64,000 bases of DNA from Candidatus Pacebacteria bacterium CG10_big_fil_rev_8_21_14_0_10_44_54 (GCA_002772695.1 PFDI01000003.1:11914-75913); one strand, 5' to 3'. Shown: positions 16,259-61,250, counted from the first letter of the stretch. The notes: generated by a model not told the origin, from the sequence alone. A program made the numbers and translations.

Positions 16259-16277
16259 GCGTATACTGAGGGCAACT

Positions 16278-16862
16278 ATGACTGTTTGGCAAAAAATCCA
16301 ACGTCGAATCACTACAATTTGGCTCGAACTAGCAACTGGGTTTTTGTGGTGGGGCGTTGGCGTAGTCCCACTACATCACGTCCGACGATTCTTTTATCGC
16401 TTGTTTGGTATGCAAATCGGATCAGGCTCGACACTTCATATGGGAGCGCGTATCTACGATCCACGACATATTTATATTGGAAAAGACAGCATAATCGGAG
16501 AAAAAGTTACACTCGATGGGAGAAGACAACTAGAAAACTCACGAGGTGGTATCACCATCGGCGACCATGTTGATATTGCTTCGGAAGTCATGATCTGGAC
16601 AAGTGAGCATGATATTTCCAGCACTGACTTTGCCCCTATTGAAGAGCCTGTGACGATTGGTGATTATGTATTTATTGGTCCTCGGGCAATCATTTTGCCA
16701 GGAGTAACAATTGCTCATGGTGCGGTGATTGCTGCGGGAGCAGTCGTAACCAAAGATGTGGCGGCACACAGTATTGTCGGTGGTGTCCCTGCCAAAGCAA
16801 TTGGACAGAGAGCACAAAACAACTTGCAGTACCGCTTGGGTAGGGCCCGTTGGTTCCAATAA
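16278..16862 (+). CDS. left-handed beta-helix (hexapeptide repeat) acetyltransferase, WcaF/LacA-like
   Basis: IGDHVDIASEVMIWTSEHD...IGDYVFIGPRAIILPGVTIAHGAVIAAGAVVTKDV. The start is taken at the internal ATG that follows a TATACT -10. Confidence 0.75.
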   Translation: MTVWQKIQRRITTIWLELATGFLWWGVGVVPLHHVRRFFYRLFGMQIGSGSTLHMGARIYDPRHIYIGKDSIIGEKVTLDGRRQLENSRGGITIGDHVDIASEVMIWTSEHDISSTDFAPIEEPVTIGDYVFIGPRAIILPGVTIAHGAVIAAGAVVTKDVAAHSIVGGVPAKAIGQRAQNNLQYRLGRARWFQ

Positions 16863-16867
16863 ATTCC

Positions 16868-17764
16868 ATGCGCGTTTCAATTCTCATCGTCTCGTACAAT
16901 ACAAAAGAGCTCACCCTGCAAACCTTGCAGAGCGTTATTGCCTCACTTTCTCAATCAATCCTGTTGCAAAACAATTCAGAAATTATTGTCGTTGACAACA
17001 ACTCGAGAGATGAAAGTCTCGCAGCAATCAAACAGCTTGCAACAGCTTCTGCTATCCCAATTACGCTGCTGGCAAATACCAAAAATACCGGCTTTGCCCA
17101 TGCCAACAACCTCGCTATCGCCAAAGCTACTGGCAAGGTGCTTCTGCTACTTAATTCAGACACGCTCGTGCCACAAGGTGCGATTACTCGCCTCTATGAG
17201 AGACTCATGCAATCTGATTCCAAGCATCTGGGTATTCTTGCTGCTAACCTACGCAACCTTGATGGTAGTCCACAACCGCAGGGTGGAGCGCTACCAAACC
17301 TCATAACGCTCACCAATCATATGCTGATGCTTGATGACTTACCGCTCATCGGAAAATTTCTGCCATCTACCCAAAATCAAAAATTTCAAGGTTGGGTAGC
17401 TGCTACCGCCATGGCAATTAAAAAGTCAGTTATCGATGAAATCGGAACACTCGACGAAAATATCTTTATGTACGGAGAAGATGTAGAGTTTTGTCTGCGC
17501 GCTCGGCACCACCACTGGGATGTAGCAATTTCACCTGACGCAGTAATCACTCACATCCAAGCTGCAAGCTCCAACCAGAAAAATGCAGTACTCGGAGAAA
17601 TCAAAGGCTATCAATACATTTGGGCAAAGCATATGCCACTTTGGCAGCGGCCGGTTGTTAACACCATACTTCGCCTGGGCATACTACTTCGCTGGCTGCT
17701 ATTTGCTACAATAGGCAGGACAGAGCAATCCCGACTGTATCGCAGTCTCTTGTCTCAGGTCTAA
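16868..17764 (+). CDS. glycosyltransferase family 2
   Basis: MRVSILIVSYNTKELT...IIVVDNNSRDESL...LLLNSDTLV...YGEDVEFCLR. Confidence 0.8.
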   Translation: MRVSILIVSYNTKELTLQTLQSVIASLSQSILLQNNSEIIVVDNNSRDESLAAIKQLATASAIPITLLANTKNTGFAHANNLAIAKATGKVLLLLNSDTLVPQGAITRLYERLMQSDSKHLGILAANLRNLDGSPQPQGGALPNLITLTNHMLMLDDLPLIGKFLPSTQNQKFQGWVAATAMAIKKSVIDEIGTLDENIFMYGEDVEFCLRARHHHWDVAISPDAVITHIQAASSNQKNAVLGEIKGYQYIWAKHMPLWQRPVVNTILRLGILLRWLLFATIGRTEQSRLYRSLLSQV

Positions 17765-17768
17765 CTGT

Positions 17769-19391
17769 ATGCCTACCTCCAAAACAATCCTTGGCTGGAT
17801 CGATCACAATCTCTTACTTGTTCTCAGTGGATTCTTGCTCGCGTTTATCCCACTCTATCCCAAGTTACCACTGTTTGACTTGATTCCAGGTTATCTCGTG
17901 CGAGTTCGAGTAGAAGATATTTTTATAGCACTTACTATACTTTTTTGGCTCATCCAGTTAGCCAGAAAAAAAGTAACCTGGAAAATTCCCATAGCAAAAT
18001 TGCTTGGTCTGTATTTGCTGGCAGGATTTGCTTCGTTACTCAGTGCAGTGTTTATTACCAAAACCATTCCTTTTGAGGTTCTGCATCTAGGCAAATCTGT
18101 CTTGCATTTACTAAGATATCTCGAATACTTCGCACTTTTCTTTATCATTTTTTCAAGTATAAAAACAAAGCATCACTTGCGCATTTTACTGCTGACCGGC
18201 TTCATAACGCTCTTGGCTGTGGCCGCCTATGGTGTCGGACAACGCTACTTCTACTGGCCAGTCTACTCGACCATGAATAGAGAGTTTAGCAAAGGACTCA
18301 GACTCTACCTCACCCCACATGCACGAGTACAATCAACTTTTGGCGGTCATTATGATCTTGGAGGCTACCTCGTCATCACCCTACCATTTGTCCTAGCCGC
18401 CCTATATAGCTTCACAAAGAAAAAAGAAAAAATTGCGCTCTTTGTTTTATTTTACTTTGGTATCTGGTTGATTACTGTCTCTGCCTCACGAGCCTCATTT
18501 GGTTCACTCTTGCTTGCTTTACTCATAGTTGTACTACTTTTTGCGATCCAGAAAAAAACCTGGCTAAAGAGGACAACCTGGTTTTTCCGCCAGACAAGCC
18601 TACTCACACTTGGAACGTCGGTCGTGCTCGTGTTCTTTGGTCAAGATATGTACGAGAGATTACTACAAATTTTGGATGGTTATCCTCTGGCTCACACAGC
18701 GTATGAGCAAGTAGATACAAAGAGAAAAGAATTTCTGCATTTTCTACCTCAGTTTCAAGTCGAAAAACCAGAAAACGCGCTTTCAACAGAAGAAGCAGCG
18801 GTTATGGTAGCTTCGGATACACGACCAACACCCCAAAGACCAAGTGACGTTTATGTTAATGTTCCCGACCATAAATTAGTCGCTACGGTGTCGGCAGAGG
18901 GGATCGAGTCTATGATACTAGTAGAGGTTGAGCGAACATACTCACAAAATGCGCTCGAGCGAGGACTTTCGCTCGCTATTCGTCTTGATACACTTTGGCC
19001 ACAAGCAATTGCCGGGTTTCAAAAAAACCCACTACTTGGTACGGGATACGCCACGCTAACCAAGGAGAGTGTTCAGCAATTTACCGAAGCCGAAAGCACT
19101 GATAACAACTATTTACGAACACTCGGCGAAACAGGCCTTGCTGGTTTTCTATTCTTTTACGGTAGCATTATCACCGCACTCTGGCTCTCATTGCGCACGC
19201 TACGACGTGTAGACCAACAACTCGCCCCAATCGAAAAAATTATCCTTGTTGGTTTTATTGCTGGCTCAATTGGCTTGCTACTCAATGCTACCTATATTGA
19301 TGTATTTGTAGCTTCCAAAATAGCCTACATATTTTGGGCAAATACGGGTATGGCAATGGCAGTTTACCTCTGGTATCATAATGAAAAATAA
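17769..19391 (+). CDS. Wzy_C family membrane protein (O-antigen ligase / O-oligosaccharyltransferase-like), paralog of the N-terminal domain of the 6001-9141 product
   Basis: FIPLYPKLPLFDLIPGYLVRVRVEDI, STMNREFSKG, IRLDTLWPQAIAGFQKNPLLGTGYATL and STDNNYLRTLGETGLAGF. Confidence 0.75.
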   Translation: MPTSKTILGWIDHNLLLVLSGFLLAFIPLYPKLPLFDLIPGYLVRVRVEDIFIALTILFWLIQLARKKVTWKIPIAKLLGLYLLAGFASLLSAVFITKTIPFEVLHLGKSVLHLLRYLEYFALFFIIFSSIKTKHHLRILLLTGFITLLAVAAYGVGQRYFYWPVYSTMNREFSKGLRLYLTPHARVQSTFGGHYDLGGYLVITLPFVLAALYSFTKKKEKIALFVLFYFGIWLITVSASRASFGSLLLALLIVVLLFAIQKKTWLKRTTWFFRQTSLLTLGTSVVLVFFGQDMYERLLQILDGYPLAHTAYEQVDTKRKEFLHFLPQFQVEKPENALSTEEAAVMVASDTRPTPQRPSDVYVNVPDHKLVATVSAEGIESMILVEVERTYSQNALERGLSLAIRLDTLWPQAIAGFQKNPLLGTGYATLTKESVQQFTEAESTDNNYLRTLGETGLAGFLFFYGSIITALWLSLRTLRRVDQQLAPIEKIILVGFIAGSIGLLLNATYIDVFVASKIAYIFWANTGMAMAVYLWYHNEK

Positions 19392-20826: not shown

Positions 20827-22028
20827 AAATCCTCATGTTAACGCCATATTTACCGTATCCGCTCTTATCGGGTGGGCAAATTCGGACCTACAACCTACTC
20901 AAACAGCTCAGTGAAAAACATCAAGTAACCCTATTTTCTCTGATTAAAGATACAGAAGAAACAAAACATATTCCAGAATTACTCAAGTTTTGTGAAGATG
21001 TCAGGGTATTTCGTAGGTCAAAAACTCCGTTCACCCTGAGAAATATTGCAAAAACAGCAATCTCTACACACCCGTTTCTTGTTGTTCGCAATTATGTAGC
21101 AGAGGTTACTCAAGCAATTGAGCAAGAACTCAAAAGAACCAAATTTGATCTTTTGCACGCGGAAACCTTTTATATGATGCCACATCTACCCCAGACTAAA
21201 ACTCCAATCATTTTGGTTGAACAGACCATTGAGTATCTTGGGTACGAAAGCTATGCAAAGCAAGCTTTTCCCCTGCTACGACCACTCCTGCATATTGACA
21301 TTGCCAAAATTAAACGTTGGGAGAAGTACTACTGGGGTAGAGCAGACCAGCTTATTGTAATGAGTGAGCAAGACAAAGACTTTATTCACCAAAGCACCAG
21401 CGTACAAAACGATATCGCAGTAGTAGCAAATGGAGTTGATGCAGATTGGTTTAGCCAAAAACCAAAGTTGCAACATACTGATCCAACCGTCTTGTTTGTT
21501 GGCACTTTTAAGTGGTTACCAAACAGGGAGGCCGTGCGCTTTCTTGTTCACGAGATTTGGCCTCACATCCGAAAAAAAATTCCGACAGCCAAACTACACA
21601 TTGTTGGTAACGCACCAACCAAAGAAATTCTCAATTTTGAAAACGAGTACCCCAACGTCGTAGTTAAAGGCAGGGTAGAGGACATTAGAGACGCATTTGC
21701 GGTTGCGGATGTTTTGGTTGCACCTGTTTTCAGTGGCAAAGGTACCCGCTACAAAGTACTAGAAGCGATGGCTTCGGGCACACCACTTGTAGCGACACCA
21801 ACCGCTGTAGAAGGTCTCAACCTAGAAGAAAATGCTCATGTTCGGATTGGCAAAACAGGCAAAGAACTTGCCAAACAAACTGTGATGCTACTCAAATCCA
21901 AAATACTGCGCAGAAAACTAGCACAAGCAAGCAAACAATTTGTCCAGAAGCACTATGACTGGCAGAGTATTTCACAGCAACTTGATATAATTTATCGCCG
22001 GATAGGAGCGAGTAATGCAACAAAATAA
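20823..22028 (+). CDS. glycosyltransferase family 4
   Basis: MKILMLTPYLPYPLLSGGQIRTYNLL...FSGKGTRYKVLEAMASGTPLVATPTAVEGL. Confidence 0.8.
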   Translation: MKILMLTPYLPYPLLSGGQIRTYNLLKQLSEKHQVTLFSLIKDTEETKHIPELLKFCEDVRVFRRSKTPFTLRNIAKTAISTHPFLVVRNYVAEVTQAIEQELKRTKFDLLHAETFYMMPHLPQTKTPIILVEQTIEYLGYESYAKQAFPLLRPLLHIDIAKIKRWEKYYWGRADQLIVMSEQDKDFIHQSTSVQNDIAVVANGVDADWFSQKPKLQHTDPTVLFVGTFKWLPNREAVRFLVHEIWPHIRKKIPTAKLHIVGNAPTKEILNFENEYPNVVVKGRVEDIRDAFAVADVLVAPVFSGKGTRYKVLEAMASGTPLVATPTAVEGLNLEENAHVRIGKTGKELAKQTVMLLKSKILRRKLAQASKQFVQKHYDWQSISQQLDIIYRRIGASNATK

Positions 22029-27360: not shown

Positions 27361-27390
27361 TTGGAGTGCCAGTCATATATTTGCTATACT
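27361..27390 (+). promoter_or_regulatory. putative sigma70-type promoter: -35 TTGGAG, 18-nt spacer, extended -10 TGcTATACT; ATG 11 nt downstream
   Basis: The motif is read directly from the sequence. The same TGnTATACT then about 10 nt then ATG arrangement recurs at rplU, ileS, lemA and the acetyltransferase gene. Confidence 0.4.
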
Positions 27391-27400
27391 GAGAACTCAT

Positions 27401-29377
27401 ATGCCACTCGAAGCCATACACCAGTCACAAATAAAAAATCAAGCAGCAACAATCTCTCAAACAACTGAAGAAGCGGCTCAAAAAACAGGCTTGCGCACTT
27501 GGTGGCTCGCCCGGAAAACATGGCAAAAAATTGCAATAGCTGGACTCATCGTCACCACAATTCTCATAGGCATTCTCGTTTCTCTTGTATTCAAAACCTA
27601 TCAAGTATTGCAGTCAATGCAACTTCAGGCAGAATCTACCAAGCTAATCGGCCAAGAAACATACGGACACTTCAAAGCACAAAACTTACCACCAGTTCAG
27701 GAAAACCTCGTAAAACTAGACGAGCACTTACTTGAGATGAGAGAAAGTTATCAGCAACTTTCATTCTATAAGTACTTTCCAATAATTCGCAATTACTACC
27801 TTGATGGCGAACACGCATTTGCCGCAGCTCAATCTGGCTTAGCCGCTGCTAAAAAGTCTGTCGACGCACTAGTACCTTATGCTGACGTGCTTGGCTTCTC
27901 GGGGGAAGGTACATTCCAAGGCGGTACTGCCGAAGATCGATTGAAAATCGTGCTCGAGACACTCGATAAAATTTCACCCATTTTGGATGAAATCGCAGCA
28001 GACCTAAAATCTACAGAATCGGAGCTTGCGCTCATCTCACCAACACGATATCCGGAAAGCATTCAGAACATAGCGATCAGATCGCAAATCTTGCAAGCAC
28101 AAAATCTGAGTTCGGCGGCTGTCGACGCAGTAACAGAATTCAGACCAGTTATCGAACAACTACCAAGTATCGCCGGCGGACGCGGTGAGCGCAAAAAATA
28201 TATCGTTCTGTTTCAAAATAACGCTGAGCTCCGCCCCACCGGTGGTTTCTTAACTGCGTATGCGGTGATAAACGTCGAGAATGGCAAAGTTGAACCAGAG
28301 AAATCAGATGATATTTATGAACTCGATCAAAAATACCGCAGCAAATTGCCTATTCCAGAGGAACTTGGTAGATATCTCACAACAGAAAAAAACTGGAATC
28401 TGAGAGACATGAACACTTCGCCTGATTTCAAAGTATCAATGGATCAGTTTTTCCCCGAGTACAGCAGTTTACCGAGTGAACCAGATAATGTTGATGGCAT
28501 TATTGCTGTTGATACCAAAGTTTTGACTGACCTTTTGACCGTACTTGGCCCAGTAGAAGTACCGGGTTATGGACTGTTTTCAAGCAAAATAGACCCACGC
28601 TGCGATTGTCCAGAAATTATTTACATCCTGTCCGAAATTATTACCAGACCAACTCCGTATCTTCGTGAAGATCGCAAGGGCGTTATTGGTCCATTGATGC
28701 GATCTGTCCTTACCAAAGCATACTCAAGCCCAAAAACAGTTTGGCCAGCATTATTTCAAACGGGTATGGATAATATTGCCGGTAGACATATCCAGTTTTA
28801 TTTTCTTGACGAAAAATCCCAAGCCGCCGCAGAGGCGATACATGCAGCTGGTCGTCTCGAGTCAAAACAAGATGTTGATTTCTTGGCAATTGTCAATGCC
28901 AATCTTGCTGGAGCGAAGTCAAATTTATTTGTAACATATGAGGTAGAGCAGGTAGTTTCTGCACCCCAAGATGGATTTATTACAAAACAACTAGAGATTA
29001 CCTACAAAAATTCTAGAAAATCCGACAACTGTAATCTCGAAGCTGGCCTACTCTGTCTCAACTCTACACTCAAAGACTGGACCAGAATTTATGTTCCCGC
29101 AGGGAGTGAGCTCATCTCCTCTGAGGGTTTTAAAGAATCGGCTCGTGTCACCGAAGAGCTTGGCTTCTCTGTCATAAATGGCTTCTTTACACTTGAACCA
29201 CTGGGAACCGCTAAAATTAAGCTAGAATACAAAATTCCCTACAATGCAACAGACAGGTATCAACTGAGGGTTTGGAAACAAGGTGGCATTGACACTTTCC
29301 CACTACTACTTGAGACAGATGGCAATCAGGAAAAACTCCAAATTTCTAAAGATACAACCTACTCAATCGCTTTTTAA
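27401..29377 (+). CDS. DUF4012-like membrane-anchored protein
   Basis: An N-terminal TM segment and the segment LFQNNAELRPTGGFLTAYAV, recalled as characteristic of the DUF4012 family (from memory, not verified). Confidence 0.5.
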   Translation: MPLEAIHQSQIKNQAATISQTTEEAAQKTGLRTWWLARKTWQKIAIAGLIVTTILIGILVSLVFKTYQVLQSMQLQAESTKLIGQETYGHFKAQNLPPVQENLVKLDEHLLEMRESYQQLSFYKYFPIIRNYYLDGEHAFAAAQSGLAAAKKSVDALVPYADVLGFSGEGTFQGGTAEDRLKIVLETLDKISPILDEIAADLKSTESELALISPTRYPESIQNIAIRSQILQAQNLSSAAVDAVTEFRPVIEQLPSIAGGRGERKKYIVLFQNNAELRPTGGFLTAYAVINVENGKVEPEKSDDIYELDQKYRSKLPIPEELGRYLTTEKNWNLRDMNTSPDFKVSMDQFFPEYSSLPSEPDNVDGIIAVDTKVLTDLLTVLGPVEVPGYGLFSSKIDPRCDCPEIIYILSEIITRPTPYLREDRKGVIGPLMRSVLTKAYSSPKTVWPALFQTGMDNIAGRHIQFYFLDEKSQAAAEAIHAAGRLESKQDVDFLAIVNANLAGAKSNLFVTYEVEQVVSAPQDGFITKQLEITYKNSRKSDNCNLEAGLLCLNSTLKDWTRIYVPAGSELISSEGFKESARVTEELGFSVINGFFTLEPLGTAKIKLEYKIPYNATDRYQLRVWKQGGIDTFPLLLETDGNQEKLQISKDTTYSIAF

Positions 29378-29934: not shown

Positions 29935-29943
29935 TGCTACAAT
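29935..29943 (+). promoter_or_regulatory. extended -10 element TGcTACAAT, ATG of glyQS 10 nt downstream (near-leaderless)
   Basis: Sequence motif. The identical TGcTACAAT precedes the tRNA-Gly gene on the other strand. Confidence 0.3.
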
Positions 29944-29952
29944 CTCGACAGC

Positions 29953-31374
29953 ATGCAACCCAAAACCACAACGCTTGACGATCTTGTAAGCCTTGCCAAG
30001 CGTCGTGGCTTTGTTTTTCAAACCTCAAGCATTTATGGTGGTCTTGCCAATTCTTATGACTACGGTCCGCTTGGCACAGAGCTTTTACGTAATATTAAAA
30101 ACCTCTGGTGGCAGAAGTTCATTCATCAGCGACCTGATATGGTCGGGTTAGACTCGCAGATACTCCTACACCCAAAAACTTGGATGGCTTCAGGACACAC
30201 AACGGCATTTAATGATCCATTGGTTGAAGATCTCACAACACAAAAACGCTATCGAGCTGACCACCTGATCGAAGAGTGGCAAGAAAAAAATAACCAAACA
30301 ACTGACACATCACCTGAAGATATGTCTGTCAAGGCGATGGACGAATATATCATCCAACACAAAATCGTCAGTCCCGACGGCAACCCTGTTAGCGCTGTGA
30401 AAGTGTTTAATTTGTTGTTTGAGACATCTATTGGAGTCGTTACTGGAGAAAAATCCAAGATCTATCTCCGTGGAGAAACCGCTCAGGGTATTTTTAGTAA
30501 TTTTGCAAATATTAGCAACTCCACTCGTATGCAATTACCATTTGGGGTTGGACAAATTGGCAAAAGTTTTCGCAATGAGGTAACCACAGGCCAGTTTGTT
30601 TTTCGCACACTTGAGTTTGAACAAGCCGAAATTGAGTATTTCTTTGACCCAGAGACAACAGACTGGCAAACATTGATGGAATCTTGGAAAACAGCCATGT
30701 GGGAGTTTGTGACTAAAGATCTACATATTGCAGCAAAAAATCTGCGTTGGCGAAAACACACAGATACTGAACGTAGTCACTATAGTATGGATACGTATGA
30801 CCTTGATTACAAATTTCCTTTTGGTTGGAAAGAGCTTTGGGGCATTGCCTATAGAACAGATTATGATTTGAAACAACACCAAGAGTACTCGGGAGAGACA
30901 CTGCAAGCCACCACTACAGATAACACACGGCGCTTCACTCCCCATGTCATCGAGCCTGCAGTCGGTATAAATCGCCTTTTTATGATGGTTCTCGCCGAAC
31001 ACTATTGGGAAGACACTGAACGCTCTCGGACAGTTTTGTGCCTACCAAGGCAACTGAGTCCACACAGCGTCGCAGTGTTTCCGCTGGCACGAAATAAACC
31101 TGAATTGATCGCTGCAGCCAAAATAATTTATCAAGAACTACTCGGTAAAATTCCAACCACTTGGGACGACAGAAGCAATATCGGCAAACGTTATCTCTAT
31201 CAGGACGAGATAGGCACACCTTTTTGCATCACTATTGATTATCAAACACTCGAAGATAACACTGTGACCATCAGGAACCGAGATACAACTGAACAAACAA
31301 GAATTGGCTCAAACCAAATACTCGAGTATCTAGCAAAAAAGCTAGACCTAGCTGAGGAAGCTGTGCTAGGCTAG
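29953..31374 (+). CDS. glyQS: glycine--tRNA ligase (dimeric GlyQS type)
   Basis: LAKRRGFVFQTSSIYGGLANSYDYGPLGTELLRNIKNLWW and a class II anticodon-binding C-terminus. Confidence 0.9.
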   Translation: MQPKTTTLDDLVSLAKRRGFVFQTSSIYGGLANSYDYGPLGTELLRNIKNLWWQKFIHQRPDMVGLDSQILLHPKTWMASGHTTAFNDPLVEDLTTQKRYRADHLIEEWQEKNNQTTDTSPEDMSVKAMDEYIIQHKIVSPDGNPVSAVKVFNLLFETSIGVVTGEKSKIYLRGETAQGIFSNFANISNSTRMQLPFGVGQIGKSFRNEVTTGQFVFRTLEFEQAEIEYFFDPETTDWQTLMESWKTAMWEFVTKDLHIAAKNLRWRKHTDTERSHYSMDTYDLDYKFPFGWKELWGIAYRTDYDLKQHQEYSGETLQATTTDNTRRFTPHVIEPAVGINRLFMMVLAEHYWEDTERSRTVLCLPRQLSPHSVAVFPLARNKPELIAAAKIIYQELLGKIPTTWDDRSNIGKRYLYQDEIGTPFCITIDYQTLEDNTVTIRNRDTTEQTRIGSNQILEYLAKKLDLAEEAVLG

Positions 31375-32168: not shown

Positions 32169-32204
32169 CTTTTCTTTTTTTATCACTGTTTTTGTAAGTC
32201 ACTA

Positions 32205-32229
32205 ACACGGTATTTTCGTGTTTTTTTTG
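32205..32229 (+). terminator. putative rho-independent terminator (5-bp stem ACACG/CGTGT, 7-nt loop, T8 tail)
   Basis: A hairpin followed by TTTTTTTT, read directly. It sits at the end of the 131-bp intergenic region before mraZ. Confidence 0.4.
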
Positions 32230-32268
32230 TATTTACTTCTTGATATGAAGAGTCATAATGTTGCCTGA

Positions 32269-32287
32269 TGGTAAATAGTGGTAAACT
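32269..32287. promoter_or_regulatory. tandem direct repeat TGGTAAA-N3-TGGTAAA (10-bp period) immediately upstream of mraZ: candidate MraZ operator and/or tandem extended -10 (TGgTAAACT) elements
   Basis: Two exact 7-mers are spaced one helical turn apart and end 13 nt before the mraZ ATG. Confidence 0.35.
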
Positions 32288-32299
32288 ATCTTATAGTTA

Positions 32300-35623: not shown

Positions 35624-35653
35624 CATTTGCTTAAAGTGCTTTATAATGATGAC

Positions 35654-39224: not shown

Positions 39225-39228
39225 CATC

Positions 39229-41627: not shown

Positions 41628-41639
41628 TATCATTGTCAT

Positions 41640-46927: not shown

Positions 46928-46955
46928 TTGATTCTAGGATGATAAATGATACACT
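46928..46955 (+). promoter_or_regulatory. putative ftsZ promoter: -35 TTGATT, 16-nt spacer, extended -10 TGaTACACT
   Basis: Read from the sequence. The ATG lies 15 nt downstream of the -10. Confidence 0.45.
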
Positions 46956-46970
46956 GCGAGACATATCGAT

Positions 46971-48239
46971 ATGGCACTAGTTAAACCCTCAAATACTACT
47001 TTCGCAAAAATAAAAGTAATCGGCATCGGTGGTGGTGGTAGTAATGCGGTTAACTCGATGATTATTTCCAAGCAGATCCAAGGTGTTGAGTTTATTGCCA
47101 TCAACACTGATGCTCAAGCACTACTCACCTCCCAAGCAGAAACAAAACTACAAATTGGCTCCAACTTTACCAAAGGACTTGGTTCTGGCGCAGACCCTGA
47201 AGTAGGCAAAACTGCAGCCGAAGAGTCATATGAAAAATTGAAAGACTTGCTGTATGACACTGACATGGTGTTTATTACCGCTGGTATGGGGGGAGGCACT
47301 GGCACTGGTGCCTCACCTATTGTGGCTGAAATTGCCAAGCAATCAGGAGCCCTAACAGTTGCCGTAGTCACCAAGCCATTTGCATTTGAGGGCAACAAGC
47401 GGATGCACGCAGCCGAAGAAGGCATTAATTTCTTGCGTGAGACTGTGGACACGTTGATTGTGATCCCCAATCAACGACTCATGGACGTAGTAGATAAAAA
47501 AATGACCCTGCTTGACGCATTTCGTTTGGCAGACAATGTCCTTGGACAAGGCGTGCAAGGCATTTCTGATCTGATTACTGTGCCCGGACTAATCAATGTT
47601 GATTTTGCTGATGTTAAAACTATCATGACCGACTCAGGATCTGCGTTAATGGGCATCGGGGAAGCAAGTGGCGAAAACAGAGCTTCAACAGCTGCTCGCA
47701 TGGCTATTGCCTCGCCTCTACTTGAGGTTTCTATCGAAGGCGCTAGGGGAATTCTTTTTAATATCATCGGTGGTGAAGACATGACTATGACAGAAGTTTC
47801 CGACGCTTCTCAGATTATTTCCAACGCAGCCGATCCACAAGCAAATGTAATCTTTGGGGCAACTATCGACGAAACTATGGGTAATAATATCAAGATCAGT
47901 GTAATTGCTACCGGATTTGACGAACAACAAATGGGCTACGCGAGCTCAAGGCGACAGCCATTTGGCGCTTTCAGCAGCGACTCTCAATCTAGACTCTCTC
48001 GATCACAACCATCAGAACCAACTCAGACTAAAATTGATCGAACACCCGATGGCTACACACAGCCGCTCACCACAACACAGATCACATCAAGCAAAACAAA
48101 TGAATCTCCCTTTGTGCAGTCTGATGGCTTTCGATCAGATGAACAGCCAAAATCAGCTATAAAAGCAAAAAGCGCTACTCCAACAACAGAATTTGAAGAC
48201 GAATTTGAAATTCCTGCATTCCTGCGAAAAAAACAGTAG
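46971..48239 (+). CDS. ftsZ: cell division GTPase FtsZ
   Basis: [17 protein letters not shown] and [16 protein letters not shown] (tubulin signature), followed by a long disordered C-terminal linker. Confidence 0.95.
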
Positions 48240-48240: not shown

Positions 48241-48249
48241 TGTTATACT
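48241..48249 (+). promoter_or_regulatory. extended -10 TGtTATACT; ileS ATG 11 nt downstream (near-leaderless)
   Basis: Sequence motif. No T-box leader is possible in the 20-bp intergenic region. Confidence 0.3.
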
Positions 48250-48259
48250 TTACACCAGT

Positions 48260-51073
48260 ATGGCAACAACTGCTTCGTTTCCAAAATCGCTAAATATCCC
48301 CAATTTAGAAAAATCTATCTTGGCATTTTGGGACAAAACTAAGACATTCAAAAAATCAATCGAAAACCGTCCTCAATCTAAGCAGTACGTTTTCTATGAC
48401 GGTCCTCCTTTTGCCACTGGCATGCCACATTATGGTCATTTGTTGGGCTCGACAAGCAAAGACGTTTTCCCTCGTTACTGGACCATGAAGGGGTATCGTG
48501 TTGAACGAGTCTGGGGATGGGATTGTCATGGCCTTCCGATCGAGAATTTGATTGAAAAAAAACTTGGATTTTCCCAAGGAAAACAAGAAATAGAGGCGTA
48601 CGGTATTGACCGTTTTAACGCAGCCTGCAGATCCGAAGTTTTGCATCTAGATAATGAGTGGAAATCGATTATTGCAAGACTGGGGCGTTGGGTTGATTTT
48701 GAACATAACTACAAAACAATGGATAAAACTTACATGGAATCGGTTTGGTGGGGCTTTAAACAACTCACAGAAAAAGGACTTGTTTACCAAGGTAAGAAAG
48801 TAATCTTATACTGTCCACGCTGTACCACTCCGCTCTCAAATTTTGAGATTTCGATGGATAACAGTTACCGAACTGTCACAGATACTGCCACAACCTATAA
48901 ATATAAAGTGGTGGGTGAGGATGATCTTTACCTGCTTGCTTGGTCAACCACCCCATGGAATAAGTTGGCAACACCAGCGCTTGCAGTCAACGCCAACTTG
49001 GTTTACCTAACTGTCCAACAAGGAAATAAAAAATTTATTTTGGCTGAATCTAGATTATCAATGCTCAACAACCAACCATATGTGGTGCTACAAAAACAAT
49101 CTGGGAGCGAACTTACAAAGCTCACATTTGAACTGCACTTTGATTTTTATAAACAACGAACAGCAAAAGAAAAAATCGGCAGTATCATTGCTGACGATTT
49201 CGTAACTGATGATGAGGGAACAGGTGTCGTCACACTTGCTGCATATGGCGAAGACGACTATCGGGTGATGCAAAAACATGACATTCAAATCATCGAGCAT
49301 GTCGATGAACATGGAAAACTTAAAGCTGAAGTAACTCCTTGGGCCGGACTACCTATTCTCAAAGCCAATAGGCTCATTGATGCAGACCTACAAAATCGCA
49401 ATCTCATCTACAGACAAGATGTGCACGAGCATAGTGTCGCCGAATGCTATCGTTGCAACACCCGACTCTACCACGCACCCCTCCCAGCCTGGTTTATCGA
49501 TATTCAACGCTTGAAACCTCAGTTGTTGGCTGCAAACAAAAAAATGGACTGGTACCCAAAGCACCTTAAAACGGGCAGATTTGGAAAAGGTATTGAGACT
49601 GCTCCAGACTGGAATATTTCTCGATCGCGATACTGGGGAACCCCCATGCCTATCTGGCGGGCTGAGGATGGACAAGAAAGAATTATTGGCTCGATCGCCG
49701 AACTACAGAAGTGGGCGACCGATCCAAACCAAGTTGAGAATATAGAAGATTTGCATCGTGAACGCATCGACGACATTTGTGTTTGGGTGAACGATGAAAA
49801 AACCATCAAAGGGAGAAGGGTACCAGAAGTATTCGATTGCTGGGTTGAGTCTGGCTCAATGCCATTTGCCTCCAGGCATTACCCATTTGAAAATCAAAAA
49901 ACATTTGAGGATACATATCCTGCGCAATTCGTGAGTGAGTACATAGCACAAACTCGTGCATGGTTCTACACAATGCATGTCTTGTCAGTTGGCATTTTTG
50001 GCAAACATGCCGTCGAGAACACGCTCACAACCGGCACTATTTTAGCAGAAGACGGTACCAAGATGAGCAAGTCCAAAAAAAACTTCCCTGATCCACTCAA
50101 AGTCATTGATGAATTTGGTGCAGACAGCTTGCGTCTCTACCTAATGAGTTCTCCAGTTATGAAAGCTGAGAATATAAACTTTGTAGAGAAAGATGTCTCT
50201 AATATACGAAAGAATGTATTTCTTATTTGGTACAACTGTGTTTCACTGTACAAACTTAATAATAGCGCCAACACGTCGCTAGATCCAGTTACAACCAAGC
50301 CAAAGCATGTGCTTGATCGCTGGATTCTAAGTCGGATAGAGAGTTGTATTGTCGAAACAACTAAAGATATGGATGCCTATAATATAGTTGATGCATCACG
50401 CAGATTAATACTGTTTGTCAATGAATTATCAACTTGGTACGTCAGGAGAAGTCGAGAGCGGCTTGCAGATGACAACGAACCAGAATCTCTGAGAGTGTAC
50501 GGCACTGTACTTACACAACTTGCACTCCTCTTTGCCCCAATCACGCCGTTCTTTGCTGAGTTTGTGCACCAGCAAATTTCTGACAACTCTCGAAGCATTC
50601 ACCTGCTCGATTGGCCTTGCCACAATCCCAAACTGCTCGATATTGAGCTAGAAACAGAGATGACTTTGATACGAAAGATTGTCGAGCAAGCACATGCTGC
50701 TCGAGCAGAAGCTGGAATTAAAATCCGCCAACCATTGAGTCAACTTAATGTCTGGGATGCAATGGCTCAACCAAGTGATGAAATTCTTGACGTGCTTAAA
50801 GCAGAAACTAATATTAAAAAAGTCTCCTGGACACAAACCAGACAGACACAACGAGTCGAGCTCGAAACAATTATTACTACTGAACTACGCGTTGAGGGTG
50901 CCGCCAGAGACTTGATGCGAACTATCCAGGTCTTACGAAGGAAACACGGTCTATCTCGAGAAAATACAGCTAATATTACCGTTCCAGAAATTCCCAAAGG
51001 CTGGCAACAAGAAATCGAACAAAAAACTAATAGCACTATTTCAATCGGTCCAGAGCTCAAATTGTTATCATAA
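48260..51073 (+). CDS. ileS: isoleucine--tRNA ligase
   Basis: PPFATGMPHYGHLL (HIGH) and KMSKSKKN (KMSKS). Confidence 0.95.
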   Translation: MATTASFPKSLNIPNLEKSILAFWDKTKTFKKSIENRPQSKQYVFYDGPPFATGMPHYGHLLGSTSKDVFPRYWTMKGYRVERVWGWDCHGLPIENLIEKKLGFSQGKQEIEAYGIDRFNAACRSEVLHLDNEWKSIIARLGRWVDFEHNYKTMDKTYMESVWWGFKQLTEKGLVYQGKKVILYCPRCTTPLSNFEISMDNSYRTVTDTATTYKYKVVGEDDLYLLAWSTTPWNKLATPALAVNANLVYLTVQQGNKKFILAESRLSMLNNQPYVVLQKQSGSELTKLTFELHFDFYKQRTAKEKIGSIIADDFVTDDEGTGVVTLAAYGEDDYRVMQKHDIQIIEHVDEHGKLKAEVTPWAGLPILKANRLIDADLQNRNLIYRQDVHEHSVAECYRCNTRLYHAPLPAWFIDIQRLKPQLLAANKKMDWYPKHLKTGRFGKGIETAPDWNISRSRYWGTPMPIWRAEDGQERIIGSIAELQKWATDPNQVENIEDLHRERIDDICVWVNDEKTIKGRRVPEVFDCWVESGSMPFASRHYPFENQKTFEDTYPAQFVSEYIAQTRAWFYTMHVLSVGIFGKHAVENTLTTGTILAEDGTKMSKSKKNFPDPLKVIDEFGADSLRLYLMSSPVMKAENINFVEKDVSNIRKNVFLIWYNCVSLYKLNNSANTSLDPVTTKPKHVLDRWILSRIESCIVETTKDMDAYNIVDASRRLILFVNELSTWYVRRSRERLADDNEPESLRVYGTVLTQLALLFAPITPFFAEFVHQQISDNSRSIHLLDWPCHNPKLLDIELETEMTLIRKIVEQAHAARAEAGIKIRQPLSQLNVWDAMAQPSDEILDVLKAETNIKKVSWTQTRQTQRVELETIITTELRVEGAARDLMRTIQVLRRKHGLSRENTANITVPEIPKGWQQEIEQKTNSTISIGPELKLLS

Positions 51074-52131: not shown

Positions 52132-52145
52132 AATCGTGTTATACT
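52118..52145 (+). promoter_or_regulatory. putative rplU promoter: -35 TTCAAA (inside the SEDS gene 3' end), 16-nt spacer, extended -10 TGtTATACT; ATG 10 nt downstream
   Basis: Sequence motif. The TATACTAGCGGC 12-mer is shared with the lemA promoter. Confidence 0.4.
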
Positions 52146-52154
52146 AGCGGCCTT

Positions 52155-52493
52155 ATGTCAAAAACTTCAACGCCATTTGCAATTATCCAGCTAGCTGGCA
52201 AACAGTTCATGGTCGAAGAGGGAATGACGCTCACCGTTCCTAGCCTTTCAGAAGAAACTGATAAAAGCATTGTTATCCCAGACGTACTTTTTATCCAAGA
52301 CGGCAAATCAAGCATTGTCGGCACTCCTACAATTGCTGGTGCAAGCGTAACTGCTGCTCATGATCAGAAACAAAAAGCAAAAAAAATTCGTGTCGCAACC
52401 TACAAATCTAAATCACGCTATCGCCGCGTGCTTGGCCACAGACAACCAGAGTCAGTGATCACGATCAAAAAAATCTCGCTCAAACAAAAATAA
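52155..52493 (+). CDS. rplU: 50S ribosomal protein L21
   Basis: FAIIQLAGKQFMVEEGMTLTVPSL. The track ORF 52059 extends upstream into the SEDS gene, so the internal Met is chosen. Confidence 0.85.
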   Translation: MSKTSTPFAIIQLAGKQFMVEEGMTLTVPSLSEETDKSIVIPDVLFIQDGKSSIVGTPTIAGASVTAAHDQKQKAKKIRVATYKSKSRYRRVLGHRQPESVITIKKISLKQK

Positions 52494-54780: not shown

Positions 54781-55345
54781 CTATCACGCCCATATCTTTC
54801 GCTGGCCAATAGCGGAAAAAAGCGCGACCAACAATTTCGTCAGCCATAACAGGTCCCCAGGCTCTCGAATCGCTCGAATGCGGTCGGTTATCTCCCACGG
54901 CAAAATACTCGTCTGTCCCTAATGTGGTGATTCTTCCGCCTGCAGTAAAAGCGCCCTCGCTCGTGACCACAGTGCTGTCGAGATATTGTGATTCATCGAG
55001 TCTCTGTTGATTTACATAAATGCTCGAATCCTTTACTTGCACTGTATCTCCTGGTACAGCAATGACACGTTTAATAAAATCACAACCAGTTCCTTCGGGA
55101 CAATTGGCAGCGGGAGGGGCATGAAATACTATCACATCACCAGGTTGTGGTGAACCAACTCGATAGCTTACTTTGTCTGTCAACAAATAATCACCATTGT
55201 GGAAATTGGGAAACATCGACAAGCCATTGACCTGGTGTGGTTGTAATAAAAATAAATAAACAACTAAAAAAATCGATAGACCAATAACTACAGTCTCTAT
55301 AAAATCTAAAACGATGCTAGAGAATGATTTTAAAATTTGTTTCAT
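54761..55345 (-). CDS. lepB: signal peptidase I
   Basis: NGLSMFPNFHNGDYLL, KRVIAVPGDTV and VGDNRPHSSDSRAWGPV (S26 boxes). The start is set at the internal Met (MKQILK) to avoid an 18-nt divergent overlap with wzx. The 3' end overlaps parB by 20 nt (convergent). Confidence 0.8.
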   Translation of the reverse strand: MKQILKSFSSIVLDFIETVVIGLSIFLVVYLFLLQPHQVNGLSMFPNFHNGDYLLTDKVSYRVGSPQPGDVIVFHAPPAANCPEGTGCDFIKRVIAVPGDTVQVKDSSIYVNQQRLDESQYLDSTVVTSEGAFTAGGRITTLGTDEYFAVGDNRPHSSDSRAWGPVMADEIVGRAFFRYWPAKDMGVIAKVVPR

Positions 55346-55411
55346 GATCTGCGACCCATTATTGCCATTCCCCGCTGGAGTTTCAAGCAGTAAATAGGGA
55401 TAATAGGCAGA

Positions 55412-56638
55412 ATGGGGTACACAGCACATACACTACGTGGTTTCGGTTGGCAAACAACGCTCAAATTTGCGACAGCTGGTATTGCATTATTCAAAATTGC
55501 AGTCCTTTCCCACATTCTTTCTCCAAATGATTTTGGTGTTTTTGCTATCGTTCTAGTGGCGCTCGGCATCAGTGAAGCAACAACTCAAACAGGCATAAAC
55601 ATCACTTTGTTACAAACAACCAAAAAATTACAATACTACCTCAGTACTGCCTGGGTAATTGCAATTGTCCGCGGCTTTCTGATTGCAATACTTATGAGTA
55701 TTATCGGCATTTTTCTAGCTAATTACTATACCAATCCGATTCTTGCACCACTAACCGTGGTAGCAGCCCTGGTCCCGCTTATAAAGGGCTTTATTAATCC
55801 AAGCATCGTCAGACTACAAAAAGAACTTTTGTTCTCAAAAGAGGCTATCTTCAGGCTGTCACTCTCTATTATCGAAACAACAGTAACTATTTTATTTGCG
55901 ACTATTATTCACTCACCACTTGCCCTACTACTCAGTCTTGTGTGTATTGCGATTGTCGAAGTACTCGCTTCATTTTATTTATTTAAAGAACGACCAACGC
56001 TACACTTTAGCAAGCGACGGGCCAAAGATATTCTGACAAACTCACTCGGCTTGAGCCCCGCATCGTTCTTGAGTTATATCGGTGATAATATCGATGACTT
56101 TCTCATCGGTAAATTACTGGGCACCTACAAACTTGGTCTCTACCACAATGCTTACGCATTTAGTCATAAACCAAACTATGACGTCTCGAAGGCATTAAAT
56201 CACTCAACTCTGCCTATTTTTACCAAAATGTTGACAGAAAAAGCTCGATTACAAAATGCTTTTTTACGCTCTTCGATTGCACTTGTCGGATTAATCTTCG
56301 TACTTTCACTGCCACTATTTCTCTTTCCCAAACAGCTTGTCTCGCTTTTGTTTGGCGAGCAATGGCTTCCAATCGCAGAGGTGTTGCCATTTCTCGCTCT
56401 TGCAGGCATACTCCATAGCATCACAAATCTTGGTTACAATATTTGGATTGCTACCAAACAGTATCTCCTACTTAATCTCCACTTGGCCCTGAGTGTTGCC
56501 GCTCTCGTCGGTTGTCTCTTGTACTTAGTTACCCACAACGACTTCTATGGCACTGGGCAAGCACTGCTCTTTTCGAGACTCATACCGCTCCCAATTCTAA
56601 TATTTGGCGTACTCAAGACTCTCAAACATGGCAAGTAA
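55412..56638 (+). CDS. wzx: Wzx-like polysaccharide/oligosaccharide flippase (MOP superfamily)
   Basis: A 12-14 TM protein with a polysaccharide-biosynthesis-protein pattern. The ATG is 8 nt after GATAAT (leaderless). Confidence 0.7.
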   Translation: MGYTAHTLRGFGWQTTLKFATAGIALFKIAVLSHILSPNDFGVFAIVLVALGISEATTQTGINITLLQTTKKLQYYLSTAWVIAIVRGFLIAILMSIIGIFLANYYTNPILAPLTVVAALVPLIKGFINPSIVRLQKELLFSKEAIFRLSLSIIETTVTILFATIIHSPLALLLSLVCIAIVEVLASFYLFKERPTLHFSKRRAKDILTNSLGLSPASFLSYIGDNIDDFLIGKLLGTYKLGLYHNAYAFSHKPNYDVSKALNHSTLPIFTKMLTEKARLQNAFLRSSIALVGLIFVLSLPLFLFPKQLVSLLFGEQWLPIAEVLPFLALAGILHSITNLGYNIWIATKQYLLLNLHLALSVAALVGCLLYLVTHNDFYGTGQALLFSRLIPLPILIFGVLKTLKHGK

Positions 56639-59740: not shown

Positions 59741-59742
59741 AG

Positions 59743-60186
59743 TTATTTTGCGCTTGGGGAGCCAATTTTTTTGGCTGATCTTACCAAAGAACCAGAGTCA
59801 ACATGCTTCAGATTGATTCCGGTATCTTTTACTGCTACTAGTCCCATGACTAAATCTTTTATACGAGCAGCGTCCGATCTTCTAAGATACCGTATTGAAA
59901 TTGACTTATCATCAAAACCAAATACTTCAAACTGCAGCTTGGCGAAAAATGGCCCTGTGTTCATCTCGACAAGACGAATGTCTTGCAATAGAATCGTTAT
60001 GACTTCACTCGAGAGAAAAAATACTTTCTTGTGTATAACAACTTTGGTTGAATCGACAATAATTTTGTCGGGAAATAAAGCAAAAGGAAATACGCTTGTA
60101 CATGTAAAAAGCGTCCTATTTGCTTCTACAGCCATGTGTTGCAGTCTTTGCTCGCTAGTAAGATTCGCGTTTCGCTTGGTTTTCAT
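59743..60186 (-). CDS. hypothetical protein, possibly bacterial PH (bPH_2-like) domain
   Basis: ORF only; weak pattern resemblance. Confidence 0.3.
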   Translation of the reverse strand: MKTKRNANLTSEQRLQHMAVEANRTLFTCTSVFPFALFPDKIIVDSTKVVIHKKVFFLSSEVITILLQDIRLVEMNTGPFFAKLQFEVFGFDDKSISIRYLRRSDAARIKDLVMGLVAVKDTGINLKHVDSGSLVRSAKKIGSPSAK

Positions 60187-60220
60187 TGGCTTACAGTATA
60201 ACTGATTTTTCTTTGTAATG

Positions 60221-60293: not shown

Positions 60294-60298
60294 GAGGG

Positions 60299-60369: not shown

Positions 60370-60379
60370 AGGCAAAAGT

Positions 60380-60388
60380 ATTGTAGCA
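60380..60388 (-). promoter_or_regulatory. extended -10 TGcTACAAT for the tRNA-Gly/tRNA-Thr transcript (minus strand), 10 nt upstream of the mature tRNA-Gly 5' end
   Basis: The reverse complement of 60380-60388 is TGCTACAAT. Confidence 0.35.
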
Positions 60389-60521
60389 AACAGCGAACTT
60401 CTACATAGATCGCGTCAGTTCAAAATACTTTATATGTTATTTTAGATTGCGATGGGTTGATTTTTTGTACGAAAACAAATTGGAATCAAAAAAAAGCTAG
60501 AGTGACTTAAATCTTTACTTG

Positions 60522-60594
60522 CGAACCCGACCGGGATCGAACCGGCGATCTCCTCCGTGACAGGGAGGCATGTTAACCACTACACCACGGGTCC
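60522..60594 (-). tRNA. tRNA-Asp (anticodon GUC), 3' CA only encoded
   Basis: Acceptor GGACCCG/CGGGTTC (one G-U pair), anticodon stem CCTCC/GGAGG with loop CUGUCAC, T-arm GCCGG-TTCGATC-CCGGT. Confidence 0.85.
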
Positions 60595-60604
60595 AACAGG
60601 CCAG

Positions 60605-60633
60605 ATTATACGAAGAGTCGTCTGGTTTGCCAA
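60605..60633 (-). promoter_or_regulatory. putative tRNA-Asp promoter (minus strand): -35 TTGGCA, 17-nt spacer, -10 TATAAT, 10 nt upstream of the mature 5' end
   Basis: The reverse complement reads TTGGCA-N17-TATAAT. Its -35 overlaps 5 of the 6 positions of the plus-strand lemA -35. Confidence 0.45.
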
Positions 60634-60654
60634 GTCACAACAGGATGCTATACT
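60627..60654 (+). promoter_or_regulatory. putative lemA promoter: -35 TTGCCA, 16-nt spacer, extended -10 TGcTATACT; ATG 9 nt downstream (leaderless)
   Basis: Read directly from the sequence. Confidence 0.45.
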
Positions 60655-60662
60655 AGCGGCAT

Positions 60663-61250
60663 ATGTCTACTCCAATTATCTTACTTGGTATTCTTCTAGC
60701 GTTGGCTGCCTATGCAGTTGGCCTCTACAACACGCTGCAACGCCTCAAGACACAAATAGCTGCCAGCATTCAGGAGATAGGTAATCAACTCAAGCGGCAA
60801 GCCTCGCTCATCCCCAATCTAGAGTCGAGCGTCAAGGGTTTTCTCAAACACGAAAAAGGAATCTTCGATCTCTTGGCTTCTGCCAGAAAGTCGGTTGCCA
60901 AAGCGGCTTCTTCCAACTCTCTGCCAGATGTAGAGCGGGCTGCTACTGCCATGCAGGAATTGATTCCAAAAATCAGCCTTGTGGTAGAAGATAATCCGGA
61001 GCTCAAGTCCAATGACACCGTCACCCAGTTTATGCGGGAGTTGACTGATACTGCCGACAAACTCATGTACGCGCGTCGCTCAGTGATTGACTTGACTCAA
61101 CAATTTAATGAAAAGTTAGTTGTTTTCCCATCCAATCTTATCGCAGGGATATTTGGCTTTGCACAACAAAAAGGACTAGAAACACCACAGACTGGACAAC
61201 ACCTCGAGGTGAGTTCAAACGAAATGAAGGATGTCAAAGTAGACATCTAG
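60663..61250 (+). CDS. lemA: LemA family protein
   Basis: An N-terminal TM segment followed by LYNTLQRLKTQIAASIQEIGNQLKRQASLIPNL. Confidence 0.8.
   Translation: MSTPIILLGILLALAAYAVGLYNTLQRLKTQIAASIQEIGNQLKRQASLIPNLESSVKGFLKHEKGIFDLLASARKSVAKAASSNSLPDVERAATAMQELIPKISLVVEDNPELKSNDTVTQFMRELTDTADKLMYARRSVIDLTQQFNEKLVVFPSNLIAGIFGFAQQKGLETPQTGQHLEVSSNEMKDVKVDI

Follow-up and report, generated by a model that had tools for sequence, protein, structure and literature searches.

Promoters that abut a start codon are known from the genomes that GeneMarkS-2 places in group C, where a Pribnow box lies about 10 nt from the first gene of an operon; the frequency of this group is 90% in Actinobacteria and 97% in Deinococcus-Thermus (PMC6028130). 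In Deinococcus-Thermus, -10 regions adjoining open reading frames (ORFs) have recently been characterised experimentally (PMC12340547). Here we describe a comparable arrangement in 64,000 nucleotides of Candidatus Pacebacteria bacterium CG10_big_fil_rev_8_21_14_0_10_44_54 (GCA_002772695.1, PFDI01000003.1:11914-75913), a stretch that we call the window. In it, -10-like boxes (TAYAMT, often preceded by TGn) abut the start codons of most genes that head transcription units, and we consider it likely that the resulting mRNAs are leaderless or nearly so, with no room for a Shine-Dalgarno (SD) sequence. What the DNA itself shows is the motif, where it lies, that it is conserved and that SD sequences are nearly absent; from this we infer the remainder.

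As in group C (Mycobacterium, Streptomyces and Deinococcus-Thermus), a TANNNT hexamer lies about 6-10 nt from the first-gene start, spacers are tight and there is no SD. The differences begin with the lineage, the Microgenomates-type Candidate Phyla Radiation (CPR)/Patescibacteria, which the text of neither PMC6028130 nor PMC12340547 mentions. TGn or TnTGn is prominent here, and spacers reach 8-10 nt at the strongest sites. Unlike in M. tuberculosis, where the remaining operons have a ribosome-binding site (RBS) (PMC6028130), internal genes here also lack an SD. The share of unit-first genes with a box, about 16/21 in these 64 kb only, lies above the 25-50% quoted for group C. The boxes equally resemble extended -10 promoters of the sigma-70 type (TGn, or the Gram-positive 'TRTGn' -16 region): TGn adjoins the hexamer, a T stands two positions further up, and the -35 is weak or dispensable where TGn is present. 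We saw no sequence difference from that class, although function in the host is predicted.

Very rare SD sequences are also a feature of Bacteroidota and, within the CPR, of SR1, Campbellbacteria, Wolfebacteria and the part of Parcubacteria without a CCUCC anti-SD. CPR members have been listed as SD-scarce (PMC10783764), and loss of the anti-SD has been reported only in a Parcubacteria subgroup (PMC9297842) and a few other CPR lineages (PMC10783764). In contrast to these bacteria, the signal here appears to be a promoter limited to unit-first genes rather than a non-SD RBS for genes at large; AGGAG survives at a suitable distance in two genes, and relatives use AAGGA. Our literature search found no report of leaderless expression in CPR, Patescibacteria or Saccharibacteria; a set of transcription start sites (TSSs) exists for Nanosynbacter lyticus (PMC12641261). 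The leaderless architecture itself is known, and it is the CPR lineage that is the new addition, with no new mechanism.

The window holds about 59 genes and three tRNAs at a G+C content of 43%. Nearly all genes lie on the plus strand, and intergenic gaps are very short or negative. Its isoleucyl-tRNA synthetase (IleRS) shares 74% identity with the enzyme of a 'Candidatus Paceibacterota' metagenome-assembled genome, and the next-best matches come from Pacebacteria, Woesebacteria, Gottesmanbacteria and other Microgenomates-group genomes. Because the IleRS matches point there, we take the host to be an ultra-small CPR bacterium of Microgenomates type. Near-identical contigs are present in several groundwater-type metagenomes; the organism is represented in ENA assemblies ERZ27293414 and ERZ27293400 and in JGI metagenomes 3300008255, 3300025850 and 3300004210. 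For comparison we used 119 loci of relatives (about 1.4 Mb), comprising 39 genome loci anchored on ileS and 80 metagenome loci anchored on glyS. L001 (the nearest) and L002 are the closest relatives of the window; L081 is a contig of the same organism that extends past the window's right end, and L083 is a strain variant.

A preliminary description of the window had singled out eight genes with an extended -10 upstream of ATG. All eight pairs of motif and ATG are present in the sequence (Table 1), and Pfam agrees with the gene identities given (the acetyltransferase matches Hexapep). Some particulars change. The acetyltransferase TATACT, placed at 16263-68, is one base off. TGn precedes the hexamer at five sites (DUF4012, glyS, ileS, rplU and lemA) and not at the other three, where the preceding bases are GCG (acetyltransferase), CTT (murE) and AGG (wzx, whose hexamer is GATAAT). 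The gap between hexamer and ATG, said to be 8-11 nt, measures 6-10 nt. Seven of the eight sites indeed have no AGGAGG-like sequence, but the acetyltransferase has GAGGG 6-10 nt before its ATG. This is the weakest of the eight sites, as an alternative ATG at 16251 overlaps the upstream gene. The start codons themselves appear sound. In five genes (DUF4012, glyS, ileS, wzx and lemA) no earlier start is possible between the preceding in-frame stop and the ATG, and public gene calls agree on the ATG of rplU, murE and the acetyltransferase. Pfam coverage also supports the starts. The N-termini of orthologues are conserved from the methionine on, and the sequence upstream is unconserved or contains stops. 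All gene sites that we tabulated begin with ATG, and leaderless starts are known to prefer AUG strongly.

The boxes are concentrated before start codons. Of the 54 gene-start ATGs in the window, 11 have TAYAMT 6-12 nt upstream, compared with 12 of the 1786 other ATGs (odds ratio (OR) 38, p = 5e-12); TGNTAYAMT precedes 7 of 54 and 0 of 1786, respectively. We counted as unit-first the 21 genes that either follow at least 12 nt of noncoding DNA or have a neighbour on the opposite strand upstream. A -10-like hexamer lies 6-12 nt before the ATG in 16 of them and 13-15 nt before it in two; three (6001, 10150 and 53929) have none. The enrichment recurs in both sets of relatives' loci: the motif is found at 69/510 starts versus 166/21536 other ATGs in the ileS-anchored set (OR 20, p = 1.5e-56) and at 89/589 versus 138/22395 in the glyS-anchored set (OR 29, p = 7e-82). 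The spacers are equally telling. The ileS-anchored loci have four cases at 0-5 nt, then 20, 18, 9 and 11 at 6, 7, 8 and 9 nt; the glyS-anchored loci have 11 cases at 0-5 nt, then 27, 15, 22 and 7. Pooled, the spacers have their mode at 6-7 nt and an abrupt onset at 6 nt in two independent sets, a lower edge that is expected if transcription must not start downstream of the AUG.

Could AT-rich hexamers arise by chance in short intergenic DNA? TGNTAYAMT occurs 17 times in the window, which is just about twice the 8.7 expected (1 of 100 shuffles reached 17), and a pattern with a fixed 9-nt spacer shows no enrichment alone (2 matches vs 2.2 expected), so the signal is visible only when conditioned on gene starts. 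Yet we give chance a negligible probability, since it is opposed by the placement statistics, the strand bias (15 copies on the plus strand, two on the minus), the conservation described below and a negative control, a 50-kb E. coli stretch in which the same naive pipeline found no -10 peak. The tests run exclude it.

Several features support the reading of the motif as the -10 of a sigma-70-type promoter, often extended, rather than as a signal in RNA. Across 136 non-redundant sites from the window and relatives, T is found in 60% at position -3 of the hexamer, G in 60% at -2 and T in 54% at -5, compared with 31%, 23% and 29% at the same positions of control hexamer occurrences; TTG is weakly enriched 17 bp upstream of the hexamer in the same pool. 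TGn is present at 11 of the 22 promoter-type sites tabulated in the window. Most TGn sites match the -35 consensus at 2-4 of 6 positions, and lepB (TTGAAA) and the tRNA-Asp gene (TTGGCA), which lack TGn, match it at 5 of 6. The two elements thus appear complementary (lemA can be cited as well), with promoter activity predicted throughout.

The alternative, that TAYAMT is a non-SD ribosome-binding signal in RNA like that of the Bacteroidetes-like GeneMarkS-2 group B, fits the position of the motif, which is where an RBS would lie, and the scarcity of SD. It would demand that the motif also precede tightly coupled internal genes, as group B motifs precede all genes (PMC6028130). The strict motif is instead missing there: in the window it precedes 0 of 21 genes with gaps of at most 11 nt versus 4 of 8 with gaps of 12-60 nt, and in relatives the shares are 5% and 27%. 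A promoter is favoured over an RBS because an RBS would precede the coupled internal genes too; the signal is confined to the first genes of units. The same spacing also occurs before tRNA genes, which are untranslated; the box lies exactly 10 nt before the 5' ends of tRNA-Gly and tRNA-Asp in the window, L001 and L002. Together with the DNA-level features (TnTGn and -35) and the sharp 6-nt lower bound of the spacers, this makes an RNA signal very improbable.

Orthologues of rplU, lemA, wzx, lepB, glyS and murE retain the box and its distance from the start, while the spacer itself has changed in sequence. For rplU, L001 and L002 both have TGnTATACT with 9 nt, and about eight loci that are more distant have TGnTAYAAT upstream of the gene. 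The lemA gene of L001 has TTGCCA, TGGTATACT, 8 nt and ATG, with a different spacer sequence. At wzx, [G/A]ATAAT, 6-7 nt and a start are kept in eight relatives (L001, L002, L003, L006, L016, L020, L039 and L040), down to 40% protein identity. murE has TATAAT, 6-8 nt and ATG in ten (L092, L093, L099-L101, L103, L106, L117, L118 and L128), down to 50% identity; the N-termini of both proteins are conserved (MGY... in wzx, MLA... in murE). More than ten relatives have TTGAAA, 17-18 nt, nATAAT, 7-12 nt and ATG at lepB. The glyS site is kept in L092-L094, and its N-terminus is conserved from the methionine; L095-097 have TGATACCAT with 6 nt and L106/107/112/117/118 have TGATATACT with 6 nt, so that three -10 variants occur across genomes, each 6-10 nt from the ATG. 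Further examples are DUF4012 (TGCTATACT, 7 nt and ATG in L097), gene 41640 (TAGTATCAT and 6 nt in L001 and L002), ftsZ (TGATACACT in L001, L002, L039, L006, L016 and L024, with spacers of 9-20 nt) and ileS (TGATAGACT and 10 nt in L001; TATAAT and 11 nt in L012, L015 and L023). In the minus-strand operon, L001 and L002 lack the first gene and have TATACT with 7-8 nt directly before the next one (the orthologue of 59740); the promoter seems to follow the operon head when the first gene differs between genomes.

This conservation bears on whether the boxes might be minor internal promoters, with expression coming mainly from long polycistronic transcripts begun far upstream and the leaderless form a small fraction of the message. 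The layout of the genome gives the idea some appeal: nearly all genes lie on one strand, gaps of 20-40 nt leave no room for terminators, terminator-like hairpins are not enriched (46-64 kb scanned), and TGNTAYAMT copies also occur inside coding sequences 46-85 nt upstream of other starts. Nevertheless, genomes with 40-75% protein identity have kept the box at exactly the same distance from the ATG, and this conserved geometry argues for selection on the spacing. Divergent cases (wzx/lepB, lemA/tRNA-Asp, 4332/4359 and 10115) are also beyond the reach of an upstream same-strand transcript. We regard dominant read-through from far upstream as quite unlikely.

Not all relatives have the arrangement. 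In many of them, ileS and glyS have an AAGGA-type SD or a leader with a hairpin and T-run instead; at ileS, the hairpin and T-run often lie immediately before the ATG. These terminator-like leaders recall the T-box aminoacyl-tRNA synthetase genes. No T-box reached the Rfam gathering threshold in eight relatives' loci, and targeted searches gave sub-threshold matches only: two were full-length, in L010 (532-676; 33 bits, E = 1e-5) and L031 (8685-8939; 30 bits, E = 5e-5), against a gathering score of 93. In the window, Rfam found no cis-regulatory RNA across the 64 kb, and only 20 nt separate ileS from the gene upstream, with no leader; apparently a T-box has been lost or replaced in this lineage.

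SD sequences are scarce in the window. With curated starts, an SD 4-mer at -17 to -6 precedes about 6 of the 59 genes, and relatives are intermediate and variable (12-25%); in the E. coli 50 kb, the naive pipeline found an SD at 45% of genes, against 2% in the control window. Apart from the GAGG of the acetyltransferase, the 4-mer is missing from the original sites and from all those added here. The only clear canonical SD sites seen in the organism belong to 22015 and rplS, where a -10 box is separated from the start by 23 nt that include AGGAG at about -11. Because these two genes carry that layout, SD pairing would seem to be still usable in the host, and their AGGAG, with the AAGGA of relatives, indicates that the anti-SD is probably retained. 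The internal genes look different again. Same-strand neighbours (curated list) are separated by -4 nt in 13 cases (ATGA-type) and by -1 nt in three, overlap by 8-29 nt in seven and lie +1 to +10 nt apart in 15, with no SD before the coupled starts. Because internal starts overlap or abut upstream stops without an SD, this suggests that reinitiation coupling is the default for them.

The mechanism that we favour starts from a housekeeping sigma-70-type promoter, whose -10 would either carry TGn (TnTGn) with a weak -35 or lack TGn and have a good -35, and which would be placed 6-10 nt before the start codon of the first gene in most transcription units. By standard promoter geometry, RNA polymerase would start about 7 nt past the hexamer, and transcripts would then open with the AUG itself or carry a leader of 1-4 nt (up to 9 nt at ftsZ). 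The ribosome and fMet-tRNA would then directly recognise the 5'-terminal or 5'-proximal AUG by the established leaderless pathway. Termination-reinitiation coupling would serve the downstream genes, and a minority of genes would keep a short AGGAG leader. The trait appears to be common, to varying degrees, to many Microgenomates and other CPR genomes. We predict leaderless mRNAs because the -10 is 6-10 nt from the start and SD sequences are almost missing, and all computational tests that we ran agree with the leaderless-type reading of the preliminary description, with TSSs positioned by promoter geometry.

The promoters may also be real while the mRNAs carry short leaders (2-9 nt), in which case initiation would be 30S-based and SD-independent, using a 5' end that is rich in A and free of structure, in the manner of leadered mRNAs that have no SD, rather than by recognition of a 5'-terminal AUG. 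Such leaders would follow from the 8-10 nt spacers of the strongest sites and the 12-15 nt spacers of lepB, mraZ, htpX and ftsZ; moreover, internal genes have no SD, and their translation already requires that the ribosome can start on leadered RNA independently of SD. On the other hand, the pooled spacers, with their peak at 6-7 nt and hard edge at 6, fit a start at the A of the AUG, and murE, murB, gene 41640 and the epimerase gene have 6-nt spacers. The published operational use of 'leaderless' also includes untranslated regions (UTRs) of <8 nt (quoted for archaea, PMC10783764). Overall, we find this explanation unlikely.

A number of points weigh against leaderless initiation as the prevailing mode. 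All TSS positions derive from geometry, and the five strongest TGnTATACT/TGnTACAAT sites have 8-10 nt spacers, giving predicted leaders of 2-4 nt rather than a 5'-terminal AUG; in E. coli, short 5' extensions reportedly lower leaderless translation. Intergenic gaps of 20-40 nt make read-through from upstream likely, in which case the same ORFs may also be translated from within polycistronic messages. Nor is the regime the only one in use, given the AGGAG leaders of gene 22015 and rplS. A generic scan for TTGACA-N16-18-TATAAT showed no enrichment over shuffles (32 vs 36; 42 vs 32), so -35 support is weak for most sites, although the scan nonetheless recovers the lemA, rplU, glyS, lepB, htpX and tRNA-Asp promoters. 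Gene starts in relatives follow a naive rule (the first ATG of ORFs of at least 100 codons), and those loci include some near-duplicates. Finally, Rfam found no rRNA in the window, no conserved 16S 3' motif occurred in 170 CPR loci, and extending the contig by 10 kb on each side added protein and tRNA genes only, without a 16S. Our main residual doubts are whether 2-4 nt leaders act as leaderless and what share of expression comes from polycistronic read-through.

A leaderless unit has no space for regulation in a 5' UTR, and ileS here lacks the T-box-like leader of its relatives. More tentatively, and with doubts that outweigh our confidence, leaderless initiation could be the dominant mode across much of the CPR/Patescibacteria. 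On that reading, about three quarters of the units in this genome would start at the AUG or at most 4 nt from it, more than reported for Deinococcus or mycobacteria. Translation of internal genes would depend on reinitiation from stop to start, with a marginal part for SD pairing, and the most streamlined lineages would have dispensed with leader regulation (T-boxes, riboswitches, ribosomal-protein leaders). Even the tRNA genes have boxes about 10 nt upstream of the mature 5' end. The reduced CPR ribosome would then be tied to an SD-independent initiation regime. The arrangement described here would add a third major bacterial group with apparently widespread leaderless expression, after Actinobacteria and Deinococcus-Thermus, and it suggests that SD-independent initiation accompanies extreme genome streamlining. 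In practice, gene callers that expect an SD can misplace CPR starts, and a start model anchored on the -10 (TnTGnTAYAMT, 6-10 nt, ATG) would improve the annotation of a large, mostly uncultured radiation. A compact promoter with a leaderless ATG would also be usable directly as an expression cassette in the few genetically tractable Patescibacteria.

Table 1. Promoter-type sites and a contrast case in the window. Spacers run from the last base of the box to the start codon or, for tRNAs, to the mature 5' end.
Feature	Position	Strand	Layout
Hexapeptide acetyltransferase	16259..16280	+	TATACT 16262-16267, without TGn; 10-nt spacer GAGGGCAACT; ATG 16278
DUF4012	27382..27403	+	TGCTATACT; 10-nt spacer; ATG 27401
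GlyRS-like (glyS)	29935..29955	+	TGCTACAAT; 9-nt spacer; ATG 29953
murE (Mur ligase)	35642..35656	+	TATAAT; 6-nt spacer; ATG 35654
ileS	48241..48262	+	TGTTATACT; 10-nt spacer; ATG 48260; intergenic gap just 20 nt
rplU	52137..52157	+	TGTTATACT; 9-nt spacer; ATG 52155; 112-aa product in public calls
wzx-like flippase	55399..55414	+	GATAAT; 7-nt spacer; ATG 55412
lemA	60627..60665	+	-35 TTGCCA 60627-60632; 16 nt; TGCTATACT 60646-60654; 8-nt spacer; ATG 60663
PMT_2-type gene	10382..10397	+	TACACT; 7-nt spacer; ATG 10395
murB	39214..39231	+	TGTTACAAT; 6-nt spacer; ATG 39229; box within last codons of upstream gene
Gene 41640	41628..41642	+	TATCAT; 6-nt spacer; ATG 41640
ftsZ	46947..46973	+	TGATACACT; 15-nt spacer; ATG 46971; predicted leader ~9 nt, no SD
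htpX	61280..61301	+	TACAAT; 13-nt spacer; ATG 61299; predicted leader ~7 nt
Palindrome of divergent pair	4330..4361	.	ATGATATCAT at 4341-4350, reads TGATATCAT on both strands
Epimerase gene	10113..10127	-	TAGAAT 10127-10122; 6-nt spacer; ATG 10115
lepB (signal peptidase)	55343..55386	-	-35 TTGAAA 55386-55381; 17 nt; AATAAT 55363-55358; 12-nt spacer; ATG 55345
Minus-strand operon head	60184..60200	-	TATACT 60200-60195; 8-nt spacer; ATG 60186
mraZ (dcw cluster head)	32279..32302	+	TGGTAAACT; 12-nt spacer; ATG 32300; assignment uncertain
tRNA-Gly	60370..60388	-	TGCTACAAT 60388-60380; 10 nt before mature 5' end 60369
tRNA-Asp	60595..60633	-	-35 TTGGCA 60633-60628; 17 nt; TATAAT 60610-60605; 10 nt before 5' end 60594
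Gene 22015 (contrast case)	21983..22017	+	TGATATAAT; 23-nt spacer with AGGAG at -11; ATG 22015; short SD-bearing leader

Beyond the original eight, we found about ten more sites, on both strands (Table 1); just past the window on the same contig, pyrG has TATAAT, 10 nt and ATG. The lepB product is 194 aa (amino acids) long in public calls. The murB box is kept in L001 and L002, but coding constraint could explain that. At the divergent pair, ATGATATCAT is a perfect 10-bp palindrome followed each way by 8 nt and an ATG, at 4359 (plus) and 4332 (minus), with the two starts 27 bp apart; it is possible that a single -10 region is shared by two divergent leaderless genes. Public calls give a 215-aa minus-strand gene from 4332 and start the plus-strand gene at ATG 4341, so the start of the latter is uncertain.

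Both tRNA promoters keep their geometry in relatives, tRNA-Gly identically in L001 and L002 and tRNA-Asp identically in L001; the tRNA-Asp promoter has 11 of 12 consensus matches. The predicted pre-tRNA 5' leaders are just about 4 nt for both genes, and in more distant relatives the tRNA promoters lie 20-50 nt upstream. The divergent lemA and tRNA-Asp genes have overlapping -35 elements in a palindromic TTGCCAA at 60627-60633, which is kept in L001 and reads TTGCCA on the plus strand (lemA) and TTGGCA on the minus strand (tRNA-Asp). A further feature of lemA in the preliminary description was a 12-mer, TATACTAGCGGC, common to rplU (52140-52151) and lemA (60649-60660). It is present at both, but we rejected it as a meaningful element; its AGCGGC part is not kept in L001, which has ACCGAC and ATTTCC, and AGCGGC after TATACT at the two genes is probably a coincidence (by our own estimate, a chance of about 3% among about 16 sites).

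The candidate box of mraZ overlaps direct repeats of TGGTAAA at 32268 and 32279, 11 bp apart (region 32265-32300), and a conserved CTTATAGT sits 2 nt before the ATG. The repeat block is kept in many relatives and may represent MraZ operator repeats, which it resembles. A terminator-like hairpin lies upstream at 32204-32222. The contrast gene 22015 has a counterpart just outside the window in rplS (17950-17991 of L081, position 17989), which has the same layout. The penicillin-binding protein gene at 33884 has TGATACACT 12 nt upstream, but this box is not kept in L092 or L093, and we did not count it as a reliable promoter.

Four more perfect TGNTACAAT boxes lie on the plus strand in the 3' ends of genes (5946, 14625, 17704 and 22796), at a distance of 46-85 nt from the ATG of the gene that follows, and may act as internal promoters whose transcripts have leaders without an SD. 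Two further copies are antisense to genes, at 58800 (plus) and 25355 (minus).

Another start codon in the window is anomalous. In the glycosyltransferase-2 ORF (693-905), the conserved N-terminal motif KKKPFVSIIIVNYNG is encoded from about 714, and no in-frame ATG, GTG or TTG occurs between the upstream stop (693-695) and this motif. The candidate starts are CTG 711 and ATC 705, beside an A8 run (713-720); the public call begins at GTG 834, which would remove the motif. A non-canonical start codon or a homopolymer error could account for this. About 8 kb past the right end, the same organism's contig (L081 18701-20615) carries a serine recombinase (Resolvase/Recombinase) and a small ORF beside tRNA-Glu. 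The strain variant L083 has a different gene at that position, and the region may be a mobile element integrated at the tRNA.

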